The position numbers and the translations under genes were made by a program. The notes below the pieces were generated by a model. The model searched no databases. It saw nothing but the letters and a program-made list of their open reading frames with translations, and was not told the DNA's origin. Below, in pieces: positions 2,696 to 13,196 of a DNA stretch of 23,138 nt. The number at the start of each line of letters is the position of its first letter. The stretch's first letter is position 1. Source of the stretch: Thermoproteota archaeon (GTDB taxonomy: Archaea; Asgardarchaeota; Jordiarchaeia; Jordiarchaeales; Freyrarchaeaceae); contig JAPDJY010000014.1 in assembly GCA_029258835.1 (NCBI GenBank), positions 1 through 23,138 of the forward strand, given 5' to 3'.

Positions 2696-3936
2696 GTTCC
2701 ACCCTCCTTGAAAGCCCTCACAACCTTTCTCGTAGCAGCCACTATGTCGTCTAGGTCTTTCCTTGAGAGGGTGGGGCTGCAACCACTAATAGCCACATAC
2801 CTCTCAATCACCTTTTCGGCGTTAGGGCACATTTTCCCGTAATCTATTGGCCGCCCGTACAGGGGGCATTCGAAGGGGCACTTTGTTTCACCATAAACGC
2901 TCTTCTTCAGGTAAAACTCTTGGAGGTTGTCAGGCACGTCGAAGTACCCGGAGGCTATCCCCTCAGCCCAGAGGGCGAAGACGAACGTTTTCCTGTCTAC
3001 TTTAAGGGAGTCCTCAAGCCTCACCGTGTAGAGCCACCAGACGCTCCTCCCCCAAGGGGGCTCCTTGGTGATGGTTATGCCGTCGCCGTCCAGGTCGCTT
3101 AGCTCCTTGGTAAGGTACTCCGCGTTCTCCCTGCGCTTCTTGATGAACTGGTCTATTTTCCTGAGCTGCATTAGCCCTATGGCGGCAGCCACTTCACTCA
3201 TCCTATAGTTATATCCCATGTAAACATACCTGTAGGCGTGGGGCTCATTAACAGGCCTGCCAAAGTTCGCTATGGAGAAGATCTTCTCTGCTAGCTCATC
3301 ATCATTAGTAAGGACGAAGCCCCCCTCACCTGTAGTTATAACCTTACTTTGATGAAGGCTGAAGCATCCGACGTCGCCTATCGTCCCAACCCTCCGACCC
3401 TTATACTCTGCCCCTATGGCCTGAGCCGCATCCTCCACCAGGAAGATCCCCTTCTCCTCGGCTACCTCCCTTATGGGGTCCAAGTCGGCTGGGTGACCTG
3501 CTAAGTGTATGGGTATCACCGCCTTCGTCCTGTCTGTCACCTTACGCTTAACATCATCCGGGTCCATCATGCCCGTATCCGGGTCGACGTCCGCGAAGAC
3601 GGGTATGGCATTCTGGTAGAGCACGCAGGTCGTCGCGGTGATGAAGCCTATGGGTGAAACTATGACTTCGTCCCCGGGCCCTATCCCGAGCGCTGCCAGG
3701 GCGGCGTGCAACGCGCTGGTCCCGGTGTTCGTCGCTATGGCATGCTTTACGCCGAAGTACCTCGCCAGCTCCCTCTCAAACGTCAGCGTCTCCTCCCCGT
3801 ACGTTCTCACCAAGATCCTAGACCTTAAAACCTTAACCACCTCGTTTATCTCCTCCTCCCCTATGGCGGGAACGTGGATCGGTAAAACTTCCTTTCTCAC
3901 GGGGGTTCCACCCTCTAAGGCAAGCCTTTCACCCAT
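2692..3936 (-). CDS. DegT/DnrJ/EryC1/StrS-family PLP-dependent aminotransferase
   Basis: Motifs GTSALH, EDAAQA, FSLHQSKVITTGEGG (PLP lysine), GYNYRM. Confidence 0.92.
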   Translation of the reverse strand: MGERLALEGGTPVRKEVLPIHVPAIGEEEINEVVKVLRSRILVRTYGEETLTFERELARYFGVKHAIATNTGTSALHAALAALGIGPGDEVIVSPIGFITATTCVLYQNAIPVFADVDPDTGMMDPDDVKRKVTDRTKAVIPIHLAGHPADLDPIREVAEEKGIFLVEDAAQAIGAEYKGRRVGTIGDVGCFSLHQSKVITTGEGGFVLTNDDELAEKIFSIANFGRPVNEPHAYRYVYMGYNYRMSEVAAAIGLMQLRKIDQFIKKRRENAEYLTKELSDLDGDGITITKEPPWGRSVWWLYTVRLEDSLKVDRKTFVFALWAEGIASGYFDVPDNLQEFYLKKSVYGETKCPFECPLYGRPIDYGKMCPNAEKVIERYVAISGCSPTLSRKDLDDIVAATRKVVRAFKEGGT

Positions 3937-3948
3937 AATGCACCACCT

Positions 3949-5631
3949 CTACTGCCTTGCAACCTCCCTCCTTAGAGCCTCCCTCAACACCCAGGGCGAT
4001 ATCTCACCCGAGTCATCAAAAACAACGTCTACAACGGCTGGCTTACCGGCTTCAAAAGCCCTTTCCAGGGCGCCGTGGACGTCGCCCGGCTTCTCAACCC
4101 TCTCCCCGTAAGCTCTAAACCCCTTAGCCACCTGGGAGAAGTCTACGTCTAAGTAGTCGACTCCTATGTACCTTTCAGAGTGCTTCACCTGCTGGATCTG
4201 CTTGATCTCGGCAGTCCCCCTGTTGTTCATGACGACCACCACAACGTTTATCCCGTGTCTGACGGCGGTCTCAAGCTCCTGTATCATGGCGGCGAACCCT
4301 CCATCCCCGGTCAGGCAAACCACGCGTTTCTCGGGGGCTGCAAGCTTGGCTCCGAGGGACGCCGGGAAGCCGAAGCCAACCGTCCCGAACCCGACGGGCG
4401 TGATGAACTCGACTCCCTCCCCGGCTTGAATGTACTTTATCGACCAGAGCTGGTTGTTTCCCACGTCCGTTACAACCACGCATTCACCCTTCAGGAACGC
4501 CTTCACCTCGTCCATCAAAGCCTTCGGCGTCACACGCCCACCCTTAACAGCCCCCTTCAGCAACTCCCCCCAGAACTCCTCCCTCACCTCCCTGAGCTCC
4601 CTCAGCCTTTTCTCCCTGCCAACGGGGGGACGCCTCCCTTTAATGGACGTGATCATTTCCTCCAGGACCGCCTTGGCGTCCCCCACTATTCCAACCCTTA
4701 CAGGGTAGTTTTTACCTATCTCACACGGGTCCACGTCTACGTGAATAAGGTTTCTCGGCACCGGCAGATGCCAGTCAACCGTCGATATGCCAGAGAACCT
4801 GCACCCCACTGCTAGCATGACGTCGCATCCGCTAATAAGCCTCCACCCGCTTTCCGTTAAGAGTGCTGCCGGGGCTACACCCAGCACTAGGGGGTTGTCC
4901 TCGGGCACCACCCCCTTACCGGTCAGGGTGGTTAGCACGGGTGCACCTAGAAGGCTCGCCAGCTCCAAAACTTCAGAGGATGCCTGCGACCACTTTACCC
5001 CTCCACCGGCGAGGATCACAGGTTTTTCAGCGCTTAAAAGTAGCTCCACAGCCTCCTCCACCTTCCCACGGTCCCCTCTCACCCTTCCCTCAGGCCTGTA
5101 GCGCTGAGGCGCGACGTCCTCGAACTCCACGTCCTCTAGCAGCACGTCCCTAGGCAGGTCCAGGTGCGCCGGCCCATACCTTCCACTCAGAGCAACCCTG
5201 AAAGCAGTCCTTAGGAGCTCGGGAACCCTGCCGCCGCTGGGAGCCCTGCAACTCCACTTAGTGAAGTGTCTGAAAACCGCGACCGTGTCGAACTCTTGGA
5301 TTGCACCTTTATAGAGCTCTGTGGTTCTAACCTGACCTGTTAAGACGATGAGGGGGGAGGAGCTTGCGTAGGCCTCGGCGACGCCGGTCACCATGTTTGT
5401 AGCCCCAGGGCCGGCTGTCCCCAAGCACACTCCCGGGCGTCCTTTAACCCTGGCGTAGCCGTCCGCCATGTGTGCGGCAGCCTCCTCGTGCCTAACCGAG
5501 ATGAGCTCCACTTCGTCCTCGTCGTAGATTGCATCGTATATGGGCTGAATGTGTCCTCCTGGAAGAGAGAAAACGTAGGGGACAGCCTCCCCCCTTAGAA
5601 CTCCAACTATGGCTTTGCTTACGCTAACCAC
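3949..5631 (-). CDS. Thiamine pyrophosphate-binding enzyme (acetolactate synthase large subunit-like)
   Basis: RHEEAAAHMADGYAR (catalytic Glu), GPGATN, and the GDGG...NN TPP motif. No ALS regulatory subunit is present in the window. Confidence 0.9.
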   Translation of the reverse strand: MVSVSKAIVGVLRGEAVPYVFSLPGGHIQPIYDAIYDEDEVELISVRHEEAAAHMADGYARVKGRPGVCLGTAGPGATNMVTGVAEAYASSSPLIVLTGQVRTTELYKGAIQEFDTVAVFRHFTKWSCRAPSGGRVPELLRTAFRVALSGRYGPAHLDLPRDVLLEDVEFEDVAPQRYRPEGRVRGDRGKVEEAVELLLSAEKPVILAGGGVKWSQASSEVLELASLLGAPVLTTLTGKGVVPEDNPLVLGVAPAALLTESGWRLISGCDVMLAVGCRFSGISTVDWHLPVPRNLIHVDVDPCEIGKNYPVRVGIVGDAKAVLEEMITSIKGRRPPVGREKRLRELREVREEFWGELLKGAVKGGRVTPKALMDEVKAFLKGECVVVTDVGNNQLWSIKYIQAGEGVEFITPVGFGTVGFGFPASLGAKLAAPEKRVVCLTGDGGFAAMIQELETAVRHGINVVVVVMNNRGTAEIKQIQQVKHSERYIGVDYLDVDFSQVAKGFRAYGERVEKPGDVHGALERAFEAGKPAVVDVVFDDSGEISPWVLREALRREVARQ

Positions 5632-5669
5632 GTTAACCCCTCTTCACGCCACCCGTTGACCTCTCCTCT

Positions 5670-5987
5670 TTACACGCCTTCACACCAGAGGTCTCTGATA
5701 ACCCTGTCCTTTCTGATCGGCTCAACCACTATGTCACCGTTTACCTCCGTTGTGCATGCAAGGCACGGCTTCCCGTTCACTCTAACCATGCACCTCTTGC
5801 AGAAGCCCAGATGGCAGTTGACGATGAACGCGAGGCTTGGATCCAGCTTCTCCCTAATGTAGAGCAGGCAGTTCATCACGCTCATAGCCCCCTCTAAAGG
5901 AACCTCGTATGTTTCGTAGCGCGGCTCCTCGTCCTCTTCAGGGTTAAACCTGAAGCATTTAACCTTCACAACCTTCACGCCGCCCAA
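5670..5987 (-). CDS. Stand-alone 2Fe-2S protein homologous to the SdhB/FrdB N-terminal domain
   Basis: RFNPEED..YEVP, LDPSLAF, and C-x4-C-x2-C-x11-C. It lacks the C-terminal 4Fe-4S/3Fe-4S domain. Confidence 0.85.
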   Translation of the reverse strand: MGGVKVVKVKCFRFNPEEDEEPRYETYEVPLEGAMSVMNCLLYIREKLDPSLAFIVNCHLGFCKRCMVRVNGKPCLACTTEVNGDIVVEPIRKDRVIRDLWCEGV

Positions 5988-6003
5988 AGAGCCCCTCCTC
6001 CAC

Positions 6004-7824
6004 CTAGTCCCTTTTCAGCGAGGCCGTCGCCACGCCTATAGCCTCCTGATACGTCAGCCTCCCGCTGGGAAGCGGAACCCTGGTGACAACCGGCTTCTCA
6101 AACCATACTTCACACTCGCCATCCCTCATCCTCACAACGATGTTCTTAAGCCAGTTATCGTTGTCCGTGTAGGGGCAGTCCCTACGGTAAAACTCCCCTC
6201 TACTCTCCTCACGGATAAGCGACGACCTGGCCGAGAGGTAAAGGCATGTCAGCATGTTCCTCAACTCAAGCGACCTAGCCCATTCATAGTTCAGCACCCG
6301 GGTCTTCGTGGATGAAACATAGAGCTCCTCCACGTCGCGTTTAAGCATCCTTTCCAGCTCGGAGACGGCCTCCCTCAAGGCGGCGCCATCCTTAATCACG
6401 CCAAGCTTCCCCCCTGAAACAGCGTGCATCCTGCCTTGAAGCTCGTTCGGCGTAACCCCTCCACCCCTCTCGAGGGGCTTAAACACGCGCTTCAGGATGG
6501 CTTCCACCTGCCCTGCGTCCACGTCGGCGTAGTCCACCTTCTCCACGTACTCCGATGCAACCTCCCCTGCAAGCTTACCCTGGGCTCCAGCCTCGGTGCA
6601 CGCCGACGCCACCCGGGCTGCACCCCAGAGGCCGCCCGAGCACTCGCCTGCCGCGAAAAGCCCTGGTATGCTCGTCTCCGTCCTCTCGTTAACCTTAATC
6701 CCCCCACACATGTAGTGGGCTGCGTTGCCAACCTCGATATCCTCCGTTTTACACCTCTCAAGTAGCTGGGGGAGTAGCGTGGTGAACTCGTAGCGCGTCT
6801 CCCTCAGCTCCTCCCTAACCCTCTTCTTAACCGCTTGAACTATGAAGTCTATTGTTTCAGCGCCGAGATGCCTTAGGGAGAAGAACACTCCCCCATGCGG
6901 CCCACCCCTCCCAGCCTCAACCTCAAGCTCCGAGGCTATGGAAACTATCTCCTTAGTGCTCTGCTCAAGGTTCCTTGGGTCATACCTCTCCATGAACCGT
7001 TCACCCTTACTGTTCAGGAGCCGGATCACCCGTCCAACCTCGAGGCTGCTGAAGACGTAGAGGCAGATGCTCCCCCGATCCTTAGGAGGCCACACGAGGG
7101 TTAAGGGGCAGAACTGAACCATCTCCATCGATATGAGCTCTGCACCAGCCCGGTAGGCCATCGCCACCCCGTCACCCGTCAGGTCACTGGGGGCCGTGTT
7201 GAACGGGTATGCAGCCTGCCACCCTCCGGTTGCAAGGATTACAGCCTTACTCCTGATCAGAACCGTTTCACCCTTCTTCATATCCAGCGCCACCGCGCCG
7301 GCCACCCGCCCGCCACTAGTCAGCAGGTCGACGACCATCGTATCCTCCATTACAGGTATCCCCAGCTCCCTAACCCTCCTCCTTATGGCCTTAACCCACA
7401 GCACCCCTGAAGTCGTCACCCCCCGCGCCATTTCCTCGGCGTGAGCGGACTCATACCCGTAAACCCTCATACCCCAGTCCAAAAGGTCCTTGAGGCTTTT
7501 CGGAGCGTACTCCACGTATTTCTCAACCATCTTCTGGTTGCTGAGGTAGAGCCCCTCCCTAACTATGTCCTCGACGAACCTTTCAGGGCTGTCCCTGTCG
7601 TCCCCGGGGAAGCCGAGCGCCTTAGCGCTCTGCCCGTCAACGTTGAAGTCAGCCCCAGCCATCTGGGAGGCGCCGCACTGGCTGATCCTACCCTTCGCCA
7701 CCACCAGGACGTCGACGCCGCGGCTTCGGGCCTCGACCGCCGCGTGCCCCCCAGCCCCCTCGCTTCCAACAACCAGCAAGTCGACCTTCAGAGACCTGTC
7801 ACACATCCCTTCAGCTTCACCCAT
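6004..7824 (-). CDS. SdhA/FrdA/NadB-family FAD-dependent oxidoreductase, substrate unknown
   Basis: Motifs VVGSEGAG, ILATGG, TGDG, HYMCGGI, LFAAGE, REESRG. Dicarboxylate-site residues are altered (QFCP, STKE). Confidence 0.85.
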   Translation of the reverse strand: MGEAEGMCDRSLKVDLLVVGSEGAGGHAAVEARSRGVDVLVVAKGRISQCGASQMAGADFNVDGQSAKALGFPGDDRDSPERFVEDIVREGLYLSNQKMVEKYVEYAPKSLKDLLDWGMRVYGYESAHAEEMARGVTTSGVLWVKAIRRRVRELGIPVMEDTMVVDLLTSGGRVAGAVALDMKKGETVLIRSKAVILATGGWQAAYPFNTAPSDLTGDGVAMAYRAGAELISMEMVQFCPLTLVWPPKDRGSICLYVFSSLEVGRVIRLLNSKGERFMERYDPRNLEQSTKEIVSIASELEVEAGRGGPHGGVFFSLRHLGAETIDFIVQAVKKRVREELRETRYEFTTLLPQLLERCKTEDIEVGNAAHYMCGGIKVNERTETSIPGLFAAGECSGGLWGAARVASACTEAGAQGKLAGEVASEYVEKVDYADVDAGQVEAILKRVFKPLERGGGVTPNELQGRMHAVSGGKLGVIKDGAALREAVSELERMLKRDVEELYVSSTKTRVLNYEWARSLELRNMLTCLYLSARSSLIREESRGEFYRRDCPYTDNDNWLKNIVVRMRDGECEVWFEKPVVTRVPLPSGRLTYQEAIGVATASLKRD

Positions 7825-8445: not shown

Positions 8446-8895
8446 TTTAGCCTTCACACAGCCAACGTGAAAGGTAGGTTAAGGCACGTGGCAGCAGAGC
8501 ATTCCGCTGGCTCTACTTGCCCTAAATGCGGCGTAAACCGCGCTTACGCTTGAAAAATAACCAACCCCAACTCGACAAGGCATCAACACCCAACACGGGG
8601 AACAGCCGGCAAACCCACACTAACCCTCCCAACCACCCTCACCAGCACAACCACCACACGCCACAAGCCGCACATCACCATCTCCATTTCCATTCAAATT
8701 TTGTTTACCAACTTAACATAGCCCCACAGCCAAGGAGGAGCCTAATAAGCCCTTGCCGTTCCCTTTCCATCAGGTTTTACTTATTTTCTGAAGGAAAAGC
8801 AAAAACTCTCTTGAAAAAGTCCTCGATGAAGGTTGCCGCTCCCTCTTCATCGGGTTTTGTTTGTTTTCCGGGTTGCTTTTGCTTTTTTGGTTTTT

Positions 8896-8919
8896 GGTTC
8901 TGTTAACTTATTATTGGTG
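8896..8919 (+). repeat. Left terminal inverted repeat
   Basis: GGTTCTGTTAACTTATTATTGGTG. It begins GGTTCTGTT, as the ends of IS6-family IS257/IS1216 do. Confidence 0.65.
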
Positions 8920-8995
8920 TAACGTTCCGGTGGATGAACGAAGTTGCCGAACGCAATTTGGGGGAATCTTTGATCCCTTTTATCCGCTGTTAGGC
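8917..8995 (-). other. attC-like recombination site (79 bp)
   Basis: Minus strand: R'' GCCTAAC, then AGCGGATAAAAG ... CGTTCATCCACCGGAAC, then R' GTTACAC. It forms an imperfect hairpin with two sub-hairpins and lies downstream of the last cassette gene. Confidence 0.65.
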
Positions 8996-9074
8996 GTCCG
9001 AAGGGCAAATTTCTTTGAAAGAAATTTCGAGTTTTCGAGGGTTCGCGAAATTTTACATGTTTAGTGCAGCGAAA

Positions 9075-9719
9075 TCACTTTCCGGCCTTGCAATATCTTT
9101 TGATCGGGCACTCTTCGCATTTGGGATTCTGCGACCTGCAAATTCGTCTTCCAAATTCTATCAGTATCAGATGGGTTTTCGTTCTTTGTTCTGGTGGTAT
9201 CTCGGATTCAAGTTTCGCTCTCAAATTCTCGTAGTCATCTTTTTCATCGGCTACCCCCAACCTTTTCATTATTCTGAAAATGTGAACGTCAACTGGTAGA
9301 ACTTGTTCTCCCCTGACCGCCATTAGGAAGACATCCGCGGTTTTCGGCCCAATACCCTTTATTGCTATCAGTTTTTTCTTTGCCTCGTCATAGGGAAGAT
9401 TCAATATTTTGTTTAGGTTTCCACCGTATTTTTCAACCAAATCTTTGGCGATATTTTTGATTCTTCCGGCTCTGACCCTATATAAACCCGCCGGTTTAAT
9501 AACTTCTTCGATCTCTTTCGAGCTTGCCTTTGCCACATCTTCGATGCTATTAAACCTCTCAGCAAATCTTTCGGTGGCAGTTTTCACATTTTTCCAGTAC
9601 GTTCGCTGGGAAAGGATTATGCCAACCAGCGTTTCGAATGGAGTATACCTTTCCCACCACTCGTTAATTTCGTATTTCTCCGATAGAATCTCCACTATTT
9701 TTCGAAGTTTTGCCTTCAT
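9075..9719 (-). CDS. nth: Endonuclease III-family HhH-GPD DNA glycosylase with 4Fe-4S cluster
   Basis: ILSQRT, HhH motif KGIGPKTA, LPVDVH, and C-x6-C-x2-C-x5-C. Confidence 0.9.
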   Translation of the reverse strand: MKAKLRKIVEILSEKYEINEWWERYTPFETLVGIILSQRTYWKNVKTATERFAERFNSIEDVAKASSKEIEEVIKPAGLYRVRAGRIKNIAKDLVEKYGGNLNKILNLPYDEAKKKLIAIKGIGPKTADVFLMAVRGEQVLPVDVHIFRIMKRLGVADEKDDYENLRAKLESEIPPEQRTKTHLILIEFGRRICRSQNPKCEECPIKRYCKAGK

Positions 9720-9757
9720 GGCTCATCACTCGGCAACGCTTACTTTGCAAATGTATC

Positions 9758-10252
9758 TCATTTTACATTGCGCGCACCCCTTTTTTCCCCGAACTGGTTC
9801 ACAACCATTATCGCCAGGAAGCCGGTTAGACCTATTCCGCCGAGCACTAAAAATTCCCAGTGCAGAAACGTCGCAATGGGAATGGCAACGGTTGGAATAA
9901 CTGTCAATAAACCCCAAGTTAAGCCAGCAAGTTTCATTCCGAGTTCGTAATTGCCCGACTCCCCCTTGAACAGATGCGAACTCAATTTACCCCAGCCCGT
10001 GCCACATAACTTGTTGTAGTAATAGCAATGCGTGCATAGATGTTTCCTCAAAACGAATCCCAACATTATGACGGCAAATGGCGGATAAACAATGGAAATT
10101 ACCGGTAATCCGGCAAATCTCGATGCAGACATACCGTAAGCGGCGAATCCAAACCAGAGCAGTAGCAGAACATTTGTTAAAACAATTGCTGCCTTTGGAT
10201 AATTCTCCAACCCCTTTTTCGTATAATCTTTGTTTTTCCACGCTTCACACAT
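9758..10252 (-). CDS. Four-TM hypothetical membrane protein with CxxC-x6-C; C-terminus probably frameshifted (would otherwise end at 9726)
   Basis: Hydrophobic helices and LCTHCYYYNKLC. ATG 10252 overlaps the alkA end. The -1 frame continues KKGCAQCKMRYIC. Confidence 0.7.
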   Translation of the reverse strand: MCEAWKNKDYTKKGLENYPKAAIVLTNVLLLLWFGFAAYGMSASRFAGLPVISIVYPPFAVIMLGFVLRKHLCTHCYYYNKLCGTGWGKLSSHLFKGESGNYELGMKLAGLTWGLLTVIPTVAIPIATFLHWEFLVLGGIGLTGFLAIMVVNQFGEKRGARNVK

Positions 10253-11165
10253 CCTTCCTCTCTTCCATATTATAAGCACATATTAAATAATAAATTATCC
10301 AACCCTTGAACTCCCCCCATCTTTCCGTGAATTTTCTAACGGTGTCTCCGGATTGAAGTTTTCCGTCAAAGTAGAAATATGAAACCGCTTTTCTGGCTCC
10401 GAGGTCGTCGGGAACGCAGAGATCCATTCTTCCCAACGTCGTTATCAATATCAGCTCGGCAGTCCACCTTCCAATTCCCTTAAACTTCATCAACTCTTCA
10501 ATAGCTTCTTCGTTGTTCATCTTCCTGATTTTCTCCAAATCGTATCCATCGGCAACTTTCAGCGCGAGTTCTTTAATGTATCTGGATTTCTGACGGGACA
10601 ACTTACACTTTCTCAATTCGTTCTCATCCGCACTTGCCAATGCTCGTGGTGAAGGAAAATCATAATATGGTTCGCCATTAATTTCTATTTTCTCTCCAAA
10701 TCTCCTGACCAATGCCCCGGTTATGACATAGGCAACTTGCAAAGAAATCTGCTGCTGGATTATTACTCTAATCGCTCCCTCAAATATGCTCGCCCCGATT
10801 CCCGGAGGCCTCAAACCGTAAAGTTCGTTCTTCACCCTATGAAGTATTTTGTCTTGATCCATGAAATTATATAATCTACCAAGATCATCCCTTAGTCTAA
10901 AAATATCCGCTATTTTATCCGACAGATATCTCTTCTCTTTCGCATCGAGTTTGGAGGATGCGTTAACCCGCAACTTTGGCTTTTCTACGGTGCCAACGGA
11001 AGTGATCTTTACCGGAACCAATCTATCTCCAATTTTGAAAACCCTTCTCCAGATGCCATCTTTATAGATTTCTGGCTGCGGGTCCCTGGACGAAGAATAA
11101 AATTTCCATTGCAGATCAAAATTATAAGGTGGGGTTGGTAGGAGTTCGAATGAAGCTTTATCCAT
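10245..11165 (-). CDS. alkA: AlkA-like DNA-3-methyladenine glycosylase (HhH-GPD)
   Basis: IIQQQIS, FPSPRALA, KGIGRWTAE, PDDLG. ATG 11165 is preferred over GTG 11174 from TATA spacing. Confidence 0.85.
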   Translation of the reverse strand: MDKASFELLPTPPYNFDLQWKFYSSSRDPQPEIYKDGIWRRVFKIGDRLVPVKITSVGTVEKPKLRVNASSKLDAKEKRYLSDKIADIFRLRDDLGRLYNFMDQDKILHRVKNELYGLRPPGIGASIFEGAIRVIIQQQISLQVAYVITGALVRRFGEKIEINGEPYYDFPSPRALASADENELRKCKLSRQKSRYIKELALKVADGYDLEKIRKMNNEEAIEELMKFKGIGRWTAELILITTLGRMDLCVPDDLGARKAVSYFYFDGKLQSGDTVRKFTERWGEFKGWIIYYLICAYNMEERKDV

Positions 11166-11185
11166 GATGACCACTTAAATTCAAT

Positions 11186-11204
11186 TTATTTAATAATTTT
11201 TTCA
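11186..11204 (-). promoter_or_regulatory. Cassette-internal BRE/TATA promoter (leaderless alkA)
   Basis: Minus strand reads TGAAAAAATTATTAAATAA about 25 nt upstream of ATG 11165. Confidence 0.55.
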
Positions 11205-11254
11205 CACACCGCGTCAAATCAAAGTTTGAAAATAGCGAACCCTCGAAAAACTAC

Positions 11255-11290
11255 GCCTAACGCGTATTCCACGCACTTTTATTCGTATAA
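11255..11290 (-). other. attI-like site with core G|TTAGGC
   Basis: GTTRRRY core at 11261-11255, between the recombinase start and the cassette. It is complementary to the cassette's own R'' (ACGCCTAAC). Confidence 0.55.
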
Positions 11291-11310
11291 TCTCTCAAAT
11301 GGGAGTTAAA

Positions 11311-11326
11311 ACGAAATTTTATAAAG
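11311..11326 (+). promoter_or_regulatory. Putative BRE/TATA promoter of the recombinase gene
   Basis: ACGAAATTTTATAAAG about 25 nt upstream of ATG 11348. Confidence 0.5.
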
Positions 11327-11347
11327 CCAAAATTCATACGACTCCCT

Positions 11348-11958
11348 ATGGACTTGAATGTTAAAAGCTTACGCCGCAGGAACGATATGAGTTGATAGGA
11401 AGCTCATAGGAGAAATAAAGCTGAGGAGGTGTTCTCAGCAATTAGGCAAAGCTTACATCCCGGTTGTGGAAGGGTTTAAAATCTGGGAAAACGCCGAGAG
11501 AATTCTTGCTTTCTTATCAAAGCAGATCAGCCGTGAGAGGTGCTTACTTTGCTTTGAAGCCCTTCTATGAAAACGTGCTTAATGAGAAATTCGATGTGAA
11601 GCCGCCATTGGCTAGGAAGAGCCTGAGGCTACCATTGGTATTAAGCATATGAAATGTGCAGAATGGTTGAAGTAGCTACAGACATTAAGGTACAAGCTTG
11701 TTTGATGTTTCTTCGCTACGCCGGCCTCCGCTTGGATGAGGTTAGAAATCTGAAATGGCGGGACATAGACTAGAACTAGATTTATAGGGTATCATTCATG
11801 TTAAAACAGCTAAAGGGGAAAGGAGAAGGTTGTGCTCCTAATTCCAAAATAAAGACTAAACTAAATTTATGGTGCTAATGAAAAGGTCTGGTTTTCACGT
11901 CACGAAGAGGTAGAAAATACAAAGTAAGAGGACAATTCAGCAAATAGTGGAGAAATAG
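11348..11958 (+). pseudogene. Decayed, truncated tyrosine recombinase (IntI/Xer-like)
   Basis: Fragments read across frameshifts: EIKLRRCSQQLGKAY, ALKPFYENVL, RLPLVLS, YAGLRLDEVRNLKWRDID, IHVKTAKG, LVFTSRRG, RTIQQIVEK. The HxxR and catalytic Tyr region is missing. Confidence 0.85.
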
Positions 11959-11970
11959 CCAAGATATGCA

Positions 11971-12130
11971 GATGGTTGGTTCGTTTACTATAACTTCTTG
12001 AGGCCTCATCTGGGCAAGGTAAAACACCCGCTGAAGCTTGCGGAATTGATTTGAACATAGGAAAATGGTTGGGAAGATCTGATAAGAGAGGCTACTTATT
12101 ATCAAACCAAGTTGGACAGGGATTGTTTCC
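11971..12130 (+). pseudogene. C-terminal remnant of a DDE transposase (archaeal IS6-like)
   Basis: DGWFVYYNFLRPHLG, frameshift, GKTPAEACGIDL, frameshift, WEDLIREA. Confidence 0.7.
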
Positions 12131-12174
12131 ACGGAGGCGGGAATGCAAGTTCAATGATTTTTATTTTTCATCTT

Positions 12175-12199
12175 CACCAACGACAAGTTAACAGAGACC
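12175..12199 (-). repeat. Right terminal inverted repeat
   Basis: Reverse complement is GGTCTCTGTTAACTTGTCGTTGGTG. The inner 21 nt match the left repeat at 18 positions, with an 11-bp perfect core. Confidence 0.65.
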
Positions 12200-12507
12200 T
12201 TTTTCTGTTTTCTTTTGGGTGTTTTCGGTGTTTTTTCGACGTTTGTCGAGCTCTGAAAGGTATATATGTGATTGTTGTTTTCGCAATGGACGGGAGGTGT
12301 GATAAGAGTTTATTTCTGTTTTCCTTTTCTCGGTTTTATGAGGGTTTGTTTTTCTTTTTAGTTATTTTCTTCCTTGCTTGCATAATTTGTGCAGTGCGTG
12401 ATAGGATGAATGTTTCCTTGTTTCCGTGGTTGATTTTTGGTTGGTTTAGGGTTTAGAAGGTAGTAATGTTTTTATATTACTGGTTGGTATTACCACTGGG
12501 TGGTTAC

Positions 12508-12735
12508 ATGGGTTATGTTACCGTTTCGGCTAAGATTGATAGGGAGCTTTATGAGAAGGTGAAGAGGTTGGGGGTTCCTGTCAGTAGGGTTATTAGGAGG
12601 GCGTTGGAGGAGGAGGTTAGGGTGAGGGAGGAGGAGGAAGTTAGGGGGGCGTTGGGTAGGGCGCAGGAGATCTTGAGGAAGATTCCTTCTGAGGAGATGG
12701 TTGGCGTTGTGAGGGCTGGACGTGAGGAGAGATGA
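12508..12735 (+). CDS. vapB: Ribbon-helix-helix (CcdA/VapB-like) antitoxin
   Basis: MGYVTVSAKIDRELYEK..VSRVIRRALEEEV. ATGA overlap with the PIN gene. TATA-like TTTTATAT near 12470. Confidence 0.8.
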   Translation: MGYVTVSAKIDRELYEKVKRLGVPVSRVIRRALEEEVRVREEEEVRGALGRAQEILRKIPSEEMVGVVRAGREER

Positions 12736-13196
12736 GGCTGGTTTTTGACACTTCAGCGCTGTTGAACATGGTTAGGTTTCTCGGTTCAGACGCTGTGGAC
12801 TACCTTAGAGGAGGCTATATTCTGACGCTTACTCCCTACGAGGTCGGCAACGCGTTATGGAAGGAGGCGGCACTGCTGGGCAGGATATCCGTTGAGGAAG
12901 CGTTATCGCTGCTGGACTACGTCGCCAGCGTATATAAGCTTTTGAGCATTACCGCTCCACGCGACGCCTTGTTAACCTTAAAGCTGGCTTACGAGCTGAA
13001 CGTAACGTACTATGACGCCTCATACATAGTTGCGTCGCATGAGTTAAACGTTGGGCTGGTAACCGACGACGAGAAGCTGAAAAGAAAAATTCATGAGAAG
13101 ATGGGGGTTCTCACCAGAGTCCTCGGTAAAAGCGTAACCGTATACTCGACGAGGGAGCTAATAGAAAGCTATGGGCAGCCAGGCAGCACCTGCTAA
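12732..13196 (+). CDS. vapC: PIN-domain VapC toxin
   Basis: VFDTSAL, YEVGNALWK, TYYDASY, VTDD. Confidence 0.88.
   Translation: MRLVFDTSALLNMVRFLGSDAVDYLRGGYILTLTPYEVGNALWKEAALLGRISVEEALSLLDYVASVYKLLSITAPRDALLTLKLAYELNVTYYDASYIVASHELNVGLVTDDEKLKRKIHEKMGVLTRVLGKSVTVYSTRELIESYGQPGSTC

Follow-up and report, generated by a model that had tools for sequence, protein, structure and literature searches.

We identify a unit of about 2.3 kb carrying DNA-repair genes in the genome of an Asgard archaeon, which, by the features of its sequence, is a mobile gene cassette. It is docked in integron style next to a dead Xer-type recombinase gene, within a crippled IS6 transposon, and is part of a largely undescribed archaeal gene-capture system. 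The stretch of DNA that was analysed (henceforth the window) comprises positions 1-23,138 of contig JAPDJY010000014.1 in assembly GCA_029258835.1, deposited as a Thermoproteota archaeon (GTDB Asgardarchaeota; Jordiarchaeia; Jordiarchaeales; Freyrarchaeaceae), and has a length of 23,138 nucleotides. Its segment 8923-11261, read on the minus strand, is probably a gene cassette that belongs to an integron-like system of site-specific recombination. This supports the preliminary description, which had viewed the unit as an integrated circular cassette with matching ends and whose features are all present where it had placed them.

The cassette codes for three proteins, preceded by a short AT-rich element:

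10245-11165, minus strand: cargo gene 1, AlkA-like DNA glycosylase of 306 residues, from an ATG at 11165 (Pfam HhH-GPD, E 4e-17; weak AlkA_N match)
9758-10279, minus strand: cargo gene 2, open reading frame for a predicted membrane protein of 173 residues with a Cys-rich motif; start codon uncertain
9075-9719, minus strand: cargo gene 3, endonuclease III / Nth-like DNA glycosylase of 214 residues (Pfam HhH-GPD, E 1.5e-25; EndIII 4Fe-4S motif present)
11183-11196, minus strand: AT-rich TATA-like element, read from the sequence, ~25 nt ahead of cargo gene 1

All three genes are still intact. The product of the second gave no match in Pfam and was assigned to no family; this gene is kept in three related copies of the cassette (L060, L064 and L065) and deleted in another (G014:C4). 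The TATA-like element is a putative archaeal promoter of the cassette's own, and comparable elements occupy the equivalent place in the cassettes of L025.

Examination of the two ends of the unit revealed the following elements:

11235-11260, minus strand: cassette head, with the R' half-word (11260-11253) and the head arm of an outer stem (11249-11235), complementary to 8997-8990 and 9046-9032 respectively
9007-9046, minus strand: tail arm of the outer stem (9032-9046) and a small palindromic hairpin (~9007-9027), just past the last gene; the arm forms a perfect 15-bp inverted repeat with 11235-11249
8921-8997, minus strand: folded recombination site resembling attC, 3' end of the cassette (covariance model R1, 69.8 bits, E 1e-11)
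Parts of this site, minus strand: R'' 8997-8989; L'' 8987-8977; two small internal hairpins; L' 8940-8930; spacer 8929-8924; G|TT 8923|8922

On the minus strand the cassette opens with a G at 11261 followed by an 8-base start word (11260-11253), and this start (11261-11253) is the exact reverse complement of the first arm R'' (8997-8989). At its other end the cassette stops at the G|TT at 8923|8922, and the word that now lies past this point (8922-8917) is not complementary to R''. Both of these relationships, namely a start that perfectly complements its own R'' and a present R' that does not, had been proposed beforehand and were borne out. Within the 23-kb window the exact 9-mer of the ends is confined to these two places; if one mismatch is tolerated, 8 matches are found where 4.15 would be expected, and therefore the 9-mer by itself is weak evidence. 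Just inside both ends, in nested order, lies the perfect 15-bp inverted repeat 9032-9046/11235-11249, and no shuffle reached the observed inverted-repeat count (a 15-bp block nested inside the ends). The same geometry, with an arm about 34-41 nt ahead of R'', was found again in 5-6 other cassettes with differing sequences; such an outer stem is not universal, and was clear in roughly half of the cassettes that were inspected.

The site at the end of the cassette had previously been described as a 79-bp hairpin; the hairpin is indeed present, with a corrected length of about 75 nt (8997-8923). Its L boxes pair imperfectly, as had been noted (7 of 9 positions paired in the window), and in two near-identical sites (L027 site 3 and L060 site 6) this helix is paired over all of its 11 bp, which indicates that the L box of the window has decayed. 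We then carried out the folding check that had been suggested, and the reconstructed circular junction does fold with its R and L boxes paired. Relative to shuffles, its 83-nt core gives z -3.1 on the antisense strand, and the extended junction of 159 nt forms a long hairpin with z -5.3 on the sense and z -6.1 on the antisense strand; the present arrangement of the ends, at about z -1, has no such fold.

Similar sites, for which the preliminary description had recommended a search, do occur elsewhere, on two other contigs of the same genome and on many metagenomic contigs. Their anatomy and covariation can be read directly. Of 12 related cassettes, which use eight different arm words, 11 have a start complementary to the R'' of the same cassette, the exception being the second cassette of L025 with complementarity over four bases only. 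At the variable positions of the R words own pairs match at 4.5 of 5 positions as against 1.73 of 5 for cross pairs, just 0.9% of which reach 4; the third base of the word also covaries (words of L035 cassette 2 and L060). The L-box helix is 92% paired across 18 sites, with compensatory changes at 7 of its 10 pairs, in an alignment (A2) that was fitted to the model and is hence biased toward the helix; none of 500 shuffles was as good, and slid controls were paired at 32-49%. The antisense strand gives the more stable fold in 17 of the 18 sites. These cassettes show features of integron cassettes: each ends in an imperfect inverted repeat with R''/R' and L''/L' and a predicted single-strand fold, and the crossover lies between the G and TT of R'.

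The three-gene cassette, with the AlkA-like glycosylase, the membrane protein and the EndoIII-like glycosylase, is also present in metagenome-assembled genomes of at least six other archaeal lineages at 81-91% protein identity; the genomes that share it are from Asgard archaea, Thermoplasmatota, methanogen-related lineages, Thermoproteota and DPANN. The boundaries of the cassette and its differing neighbours are directly visible in these comparisons. Nucleotide homology to the window starts exactly at 11262/11261 in L060 and L064; on its upstream side the cassette adjoins an attI-like site in L066 and L072 as in the window, but the site of another cassette in L060, which holds an array of six sites; and the downstream neighbours differ past the G|TT. 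The crossover at G|TT that had been surmised for this unit is thus placed there by comparison. Within the phylum itself, DNA and protein searches of 400 genomes recovered only sparse and mostly decayed copies (G014, G043, G144, G324 and G396).

The whole module (8896-12199) lies between IS6-type inverted repeats, beside a transposase remnant, inside a CRISPR leader:

8896-8919, no strand assigned: left inverted repeat (IR-L) of the IS6-type transposon, a 21-nt, 86% inverted repeat with 12175-12195; abuts the G|TT end of the cassette
12175-12199, no strand assigned: right inverted repeat (IR-R), pairing with IR-L
11965-12120, plus strand: remnant, the last ~53 codons of an IS6-family DDE transposase (TBLASTN, 62% identity to P0123 residues 149-201)

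The inverted repeats and the transposase remnant match intact IS6-family relatives; in two loci (L048 and L051) the same end and subterminal sequences flank intact IS6-family transposases. The transposase is of the DDE (IS240/IS6) type, of which the window holds a remnant only, and the copy C14 keeps its residues 34-212, interrupted by stops. We initially considered 11262-12175 as one IS6 transposase and rejected this, as the region is mostly a tyrosine-recombinase pseudogene and only its last ~150 bases belong to a transposase; likewise, the match of C14 to the right end of the window, taken at one point for a recombinase tail, is the transposase tail. An 8-bp target-site duplication was not found, as the flanks 8888-8895 and 12200-12207 differ and share only a T run; C49, the locus used for comparison, is not an allele but a paralogous CRISPR leader. 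The 400 genomes of the phylum yielded no close IS6 relative, and Rfam and tRNA scans of the window gave no matches.

Between the cassette and the transposase remnant lie the two elements of the putative capture platform:

11261-11349, no strand assigned: attI-like docking site; conserved blocks in a ten-copy alignment, bounded by the crossover G (11261) and by the start of the recombinase
11350-11970, plus strand: XerA-like tyrosine recombinase pseudogene (PF00589, E 6e-5 with 4 stops; TBLASTN, 42% identity to the intact relative P0002)

The ten copies of the docking site come from different genomes, and their conservation reaches the G|TT and then ends; like an integron attI it lies beside a recombinase gene and has had different cassettes inserted at it. 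The pseudogene spans residues 2-209 of about 268, with many stops and frameshifts, and its catalytic C-terminus is lost. Intact platforms (L025, L027, L035 and L038) have the same layout, in which 2-3 or more cassettes accompany the recombinase and the conserved docking site. No cassette-free platform was found among the short contigs, which simply stop at the crossover.

The type of the recombinase is directly apparent from its intact relatives. P0002 aligns in a single stretch with the XerA structures 4a8e and 5hxy, whereas its alignment with VchIntIA (2a3v) breaks into two stretches (49-171 with 48-174 and 190-259 with 239-308) that skip ~46 IntI residues. Its TIGR02249 score is 192 bits (cut-off 265). 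The intact relatives lack the IntI-specific domain (patch III region); their best-scoring family is the archaeal XerA model NF040815 of NCBIfam, with 216.9, 214.6 and 203 bits, just under its cut-off of 220. The identity of 71-89% across phyla and the carriage in a transposon argue that the recombinase would be an element-borne XerA paralogue rather than a housekeeping enzyme. No close relative was found on viral contigs, and the C50 integrase of the same genome is unrelated to it. As the neighbouring enzyme is XerA-like and without the IntI-specific domain, the platform of the window is not a canonical integron, and IntI1 in E. coli, the assay earlier put forward, is not the obvious test enzyme.

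One might still suppose that this is a canonical integron cassette moved by an IntI-type integrase from elsewhere or from a donor cell, with the adjacent Xer-like gene as a bystander. The window's R'' and reconstituted R' do fit the canonical attC consensus with crossover at G|TT, archaeal attC arrays without IntI have been published and are enriched in Asgard archaea, and IntI1 recombined archaeal attCs (PMC9668308). Moreover, the array of L060 has no recombinase in the 8.9 kb examined. However, no IntI-like gene was found in the genome (the best TIGR02249 match, of 18 bits, is to an unrelated integrase), cassettes are accompanied by the Xer-like gene and its conserved docking site on six or more independent contigs and also inside a transposon, and the sites have extra conserved parts not seen in attC, namely the outer stem and the two internal hairpins. 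We therefore regard this alternative as improbable.

A somewhat smaller probability attaches to an Xer/dif-type module like the pdif modules of Acinetobacter, in which inverted dif-like sites recombine as double strands with no folded intermediate. The Xer-like enzyme, the inverted repeats at the module ends and the resemblance of R box, spacer and L box to the arm, central region and arm of dif would all accommodate it; against it, the eight arm words vary between cassettes and yet complement their own partners, which bespeaks base pairing and not a fixed protein-binding sequence, the structured site is found at the 3' end of each cassette only, and the antisense strand is predominantly the more stable one. 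Finally, that the matching ends reflect chance, or structures at the RNA level or of a terminator in an ordinary operon of three genes, with the IS6 transposon as the only mobile unit, is very improbable: on its own, a 9-bp inverted repeat with its arms 2.3 kb apart is not uncommon, a terminator-like palindrome follows the last gene, and the occurrence of the G014:C4 cassette within the same kind of transposon shows transposon and not cassette mobility, but the head arm, being located upstream of the TATA-like element, would fall outside the mRNA, and the reading is already contradicted by the complementarity rule, by the cassette having other neighbours at either end in other genomes, where the breakpoints fall at G|TT, and by the family-wide covariation of the L box.

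Returning to cassette capture, the circular intermediate, the use of a folded single strand and the identity of the acting enzyme are the parts that we infer. In the free circle the two ends of the cassette would join to make one long folded site, consisting of the outer stem, the R-box helix, an unpaired spacer, the L-box helix and the two small hairpins. A tyrosine recombinase would have exchanged strands at G|TT between this folded site and the attI-like docking site (11261-11349), and the exchange would have split the R box such that one half opens the cassette (11260-11253) and the other is retained in the end site (8997-8989). The most likely catalyst would be the recombinase encoded divergently beside the docking site, of a 266-269-residue XerA-like family without the IntI-specific domain. 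Against this proposal, several arrays such as L060 and IS6 elements such as C14 hold sites with no recombinase close by. The IS6-type transposon (8896-12199), inserted into the CRISPR leader, carries recombinase, docking site and cassette jointly as its cargo. The broader proposition, that short XerA-like recombinases without the integron-integrase domain genuinely capture and excise cassettes at large folded sites and that IS6 transposons carry this form between archaeal phyla including Asgard, is tentative, and we would give it slightly less than an even chance. The copy in the window is a fossil, with a truncated recombinase bearing many stops, only the tail of a transposase and a degraded L box; since the recombinase is dead and the L box degraded, this cassette looks immobile.

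Archaeal integrons and integrase-less attC clusters have been reported, with Asgard archaea rich in attC clusters (Ghaly et al. 2022, PMC9668308). Integrons are the textbook bacterial gene-capture device; from archaea, only six integron integrases have been reported against 539 attC sites. The present locus links a well-bounded cassette, a conserved docking site and an Xer-type recombinase in a single transposon; it offers an enzyme and a substrate as concrete, testable candidates for gene exchange between archaeal phyla, and indicates that a repair operon, and not just small accessory genes, can travel as a cassette. If capture by XerA-like enzymes is true, the system would represent an archaeal equivalent of mobile integrons, would account for the published 'integrase-less' archaeal attC clusters, and might point to the origin of integrons from Xer systems.

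In this system, as in integrons, a divergent tyrosine recombinase gene lies by the docking site, beyond which the cassettes follow in one orientation, each closed by an imperfect-hairpin site that has R and L boxes. The G|TT crossover, the cassette start complementing its own R'' and the better-folding bottom strand are likewise common to both. It differs from them in that its sites are larger than attC, with an outer stem and two conserved internal hairpins, and have a strongly asymmetric R-L spacer, and in that each cassette has a promoter-like element of its own and may contain three genes or more. As the IntI domain that reads the extrahelical attC bases is absent, single-strand recognition cannot match that of integrons exactly. 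Val et al. are said to have reported in 2005 that the folded single-stranded genome of phage CTX is integrated by XerCD. There, the substrate of an Xer-type recombinase that lacks the IntI domain is a hairpin whose stem recreates two binding arms around an unpaired centre. The archaeal case would likewise combine an Xer-type enzyme lacking this domain with a hairpin substrate; yet CTX is a phage using the host's chromosomal dif and housekeeping enzymes, whereas here the enzyme is element-encoded, with its own docking site and gene cassettes in arrays. As in class 1 integrons in Tn402-type elements and IS6/IS26 elements with passengers, a cassette-capture module lies within transposon inverted repeats and is moved as cargo. 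In contrast to mobile integrons, the vehicle is an archaeal IS6-family element, the inner margin of IR-L seems to incorporate the right half of the docking site, all copies seen together with the recombinase have either a crippled transposase or none, and a clean 8-bp target duplication is absent here. Finally, the pdif modules of Acinetobacter plasmids are comparable gene modules between inverted Xer-type sites that are exchanged between replicons; however, their arms are fixed protein-binding sequences on double-stranded DNA, while those of the archaeal cassettes vary and yet remain self-complementary.

The unit at 8923-11261 on the minus strand had been read in the preliminary description as a circular cassette integrated at the proposed crossover point G|TT, the features described there are confirmed, and this reading is supported by sequence evidence of three kinds, namely folding, covariation and comparative breakpoints. 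The cassette opens on the minus strand with a G at 11261 followed by an 8-base word at 11260-11253, and, as the preliminary description had it, the opening 9-mer is perfectly complementary to the cassette's own R'' box in the attC-like site at its 3' end (exact reverse complement at 8997-8989), whereas the word after the present G|TT (8923|8922, about 65 bases past R'') is not. An exact search of the window finds the 9-mer of the cassette ends only twice; tolerating one mismatch gives 8 matches against 4.15 expected by chance, a near-chance count that makes the 9-mer alone weak proof. A perfect 15-bp inverted repeat (9032-9046 and 11235-11249) is nested immediately within the two ends, and a further, outermost pair (8899-8919 and 12175-12195; 86% match) surrounds a larger unit of 3.3 kb. 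The genes concerned are:

9075-9719, minus strand, endonuclease III-like glycosylase (family match)
9758-10279, minus strand, 173-aa membrane protein without family match
10245-11165, minus strand, AlkA-like HhH-GPD glycosylase (family match)
11350-11970, opposite strand to the cassette genes and upstream of the cassette, tyrosine-recombinase pseudogene (Pfam PF00589 match with four stops)
11965-12120, just after the recombinase pseudogene, last 53 codons of an IS6-family DDE transposase

To mimic the circular cassette, we joined 9050-8923 to 11260-11230. The resulting 159-nt junction has a folding energy of -35.1 kcal/mol (z -5.3) for the sense strand and -40.1 kcal/mol (z -6.1) for the antisense strand; for its 83-nt core the respective z-scores are -1.2 and -3.1, and both R and L boxes pair on the antisense strand, as anticipated for the reconstructed junction. 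The present integrated arrangement gives a z-score of about -1 and no R-box helix. Of 18 sites of the family, 17 fold more stably as the antisense strand than as the sense strand. The imperfect L-box pairing remarked on earlier amounts to 7 of 9 positions in the window. Two nearly identical sites elsewhere have an unbroken 11-bp helix at this place, so the window copy has accumulated substitutions.

For 12 cassettes with both ends known, we then compared the eight bases that follow the crossover with the R'' of the same cassette. In eleven of them at least 7 of the 8 positions match, and the words involved are of eight kinds. Over the five positions that vary, own pairs average 4.5 matches, against 1.73 for pairs drawn from different cassettes, of which only 0.9% reach 4; in two words the third base of the crossover triplet also varies in step with its partner. 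The L-box inner helix, predicted by RNAalifold from nine sites and then scored on 18, is 92% paired, with compensatory changes in 7 of 10 pairs, values to be read with the alignment having been fitted to the model; none of 500 shuffles reaches them, and in slid controls pairing is 32-49%. About half of the cassettes also have an outer stem of the window geometry, with different sequences.

The same cassette is found in other genomes. In a scan of species-representative genomes, the AlkA-like protein has relatives of 81-91% identity in MAGs of other archaeal lineages, labeled Thermoplasmatota, Candidatus Methanoxibalbensis, Nitrososphaeria, Aenigmatarchaeota, Thermoprotei, Altiarchaeales and Bathyarchaeota, many of them derived from hydrothermal sediments. 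In two comparison loci, L060 and L064, nucleotide homology to the window starts exactly at 11262/11261. The upstream neighbor of the cassette is an attI-like docking site in three cases (the window, L066 and L072) and the last part of a different cassette's site in L060, within an array of six sites; in L061 and L064 it is neither of these. Downstream of G|TT the window has a transposon repeat and L060 the next cassette. The same two boundaries with different neighbors are the signature of a cassette. In G014, a genome from a different family of this phylum, the cassette sits at a different place in the same kind of transposon, with no middle gene and only a minor part of the recombinase left. 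Here (L022 2859-2876 versus window 10216-9740) the AlkA-like frame runs beyond its usual stop where the 173-aa membrane-protein gene is missing, which looks like a 477-bp deletion.

The preliminary description had made its reading depend on similar sites occurring elsewhere; two further strong ones, along with several decayed element ends, are present in the same genome (contigs C60 and C14), and others on L025, L027, L035, L038 and L060. By reading the pseudogene through its stops we recovered intact relatives of 266-269 aa, whose loci (L025, L027, L035, L038) share a layout of recombinase gene, a conserved docking site of ~95 bases, and two, three or more cassettes, each ending in the same kind of site as the window cassette. 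Docking-site conservation runs from the recombinase start to G|TT and ends there. In L025, L035 and L038 the recombinase gene is closely followed by an IS6-type repeat, and L025 has a second one right after its last cassette; L027/L028 lack this repeat and are set among ordinary archaeal genes, including that for the DNA polymerase D large subunit. Many recombinase relatives lie on short contigs ending at or a few bases past G|TT (e.g. L052, L053 and L055; 1.0-1.5 kb), as expected if assemblies break where cassettes vary within the population.

The intact recombinases score best against the archaeal XerA model (216.9 bits; cut-off 220), reach 192 bits with the integron-integrase model, under its cut-off of 265, and can be aligned over their full length with the two solved archaeal XerA structures. 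Their alignment with the Vibrio integron integrase is broken into two stretches, skipping ~46 residues that constitute the IntI-specific domain. The family numbers more than 980 proteins at E 1e-60 or better. Identity is at least 71% throughout the top 120, whose source names include Thermoplasmatota, Altiarchaeales and several lineages of DPANN. This degree of similarity between phyla and the carriage by a transposon speak against a housekeeping role. Ordinary XerA was not seen with the Pfam tyrosine-recombinase model in this 95%-complete MAG, the only gene besides the pseudogenes being an unrelated 423-aa integrase on contig C50.

The window copy is a fossil within a crippled transposon. A tblastn alignment of the pseudogene covers residues 2-209 of the 268 of an intact relative; hence the catalytic tail is missing. 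A reading of 11262-12175 as one transposase was ruled out, as this segment is mostly recombinase pseudogene with only the last ~150 bases being transposase. The outer inverted repeats (8896-8919 and 12175-12199) and subterminal sequence are the same as those following intact IS6-family transposases on L048 and L051, two metagenomic contigs. A CRISPR leader is split by the 3.3-kb unit and resumes as leader-like sequence at 12200, and on contig C49 of the same genome a full array is accompanied by a leader without interruption; no clean 8-bp duplication was found in the unit's flanks. The sequence around the insertion (8745-8885 and 12200-12400) places it ~30 bases from the first repeat, and on the array side just two degenerate 37-nt repeats are left, at about 8753-8868. 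Full arrays with a ~77-bp period are present on contigs C49, C48 and C59, those on C59 flanking another decayed element copy. Just past the leader remnant (12466-13196) is a pair of ribbon-helix-helix antitoxin and PIN-domain toxin genes. The L048 element (2877-6680) shares the ends of the window element, encodes an intact transposase and has different cargo, a DNA methyltransferase and neighboring genes that are probably a restriction-modification system, and neither recombinase nor cassette-family site. A second IS6-type element of the window's genome (C14 52458-53859) retains residues 34-212 of its transposase in decayed form, together with a SAM-methyltransferase gene in reversed orientation and a single strong cassette-family site next to its left inverted repeat, without recombinase or docking site.

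Integrons have been described in 75 archaeal MAGs, with enrichment in Asgard archaea; that survey, which excluded singleton sites, counted six IntIs, all with the specific domain, and 539 attC sites, the majority in clusters without an integrase (Ghaly et al. 2022; PMC9668308). For candidate phyla, Xer-related recombinases have been listed with no description of cassette arrays (Smyshlyaev et al. 2021; PMC8138268), and the literature searched yielded no account of such arrays in archaea being served by a Xer-type recombinase. The present system falls outside the strict integron family because the defining IntI-specific domain is absent from the window-type recombinase; it nevertheless probably works like an integron.
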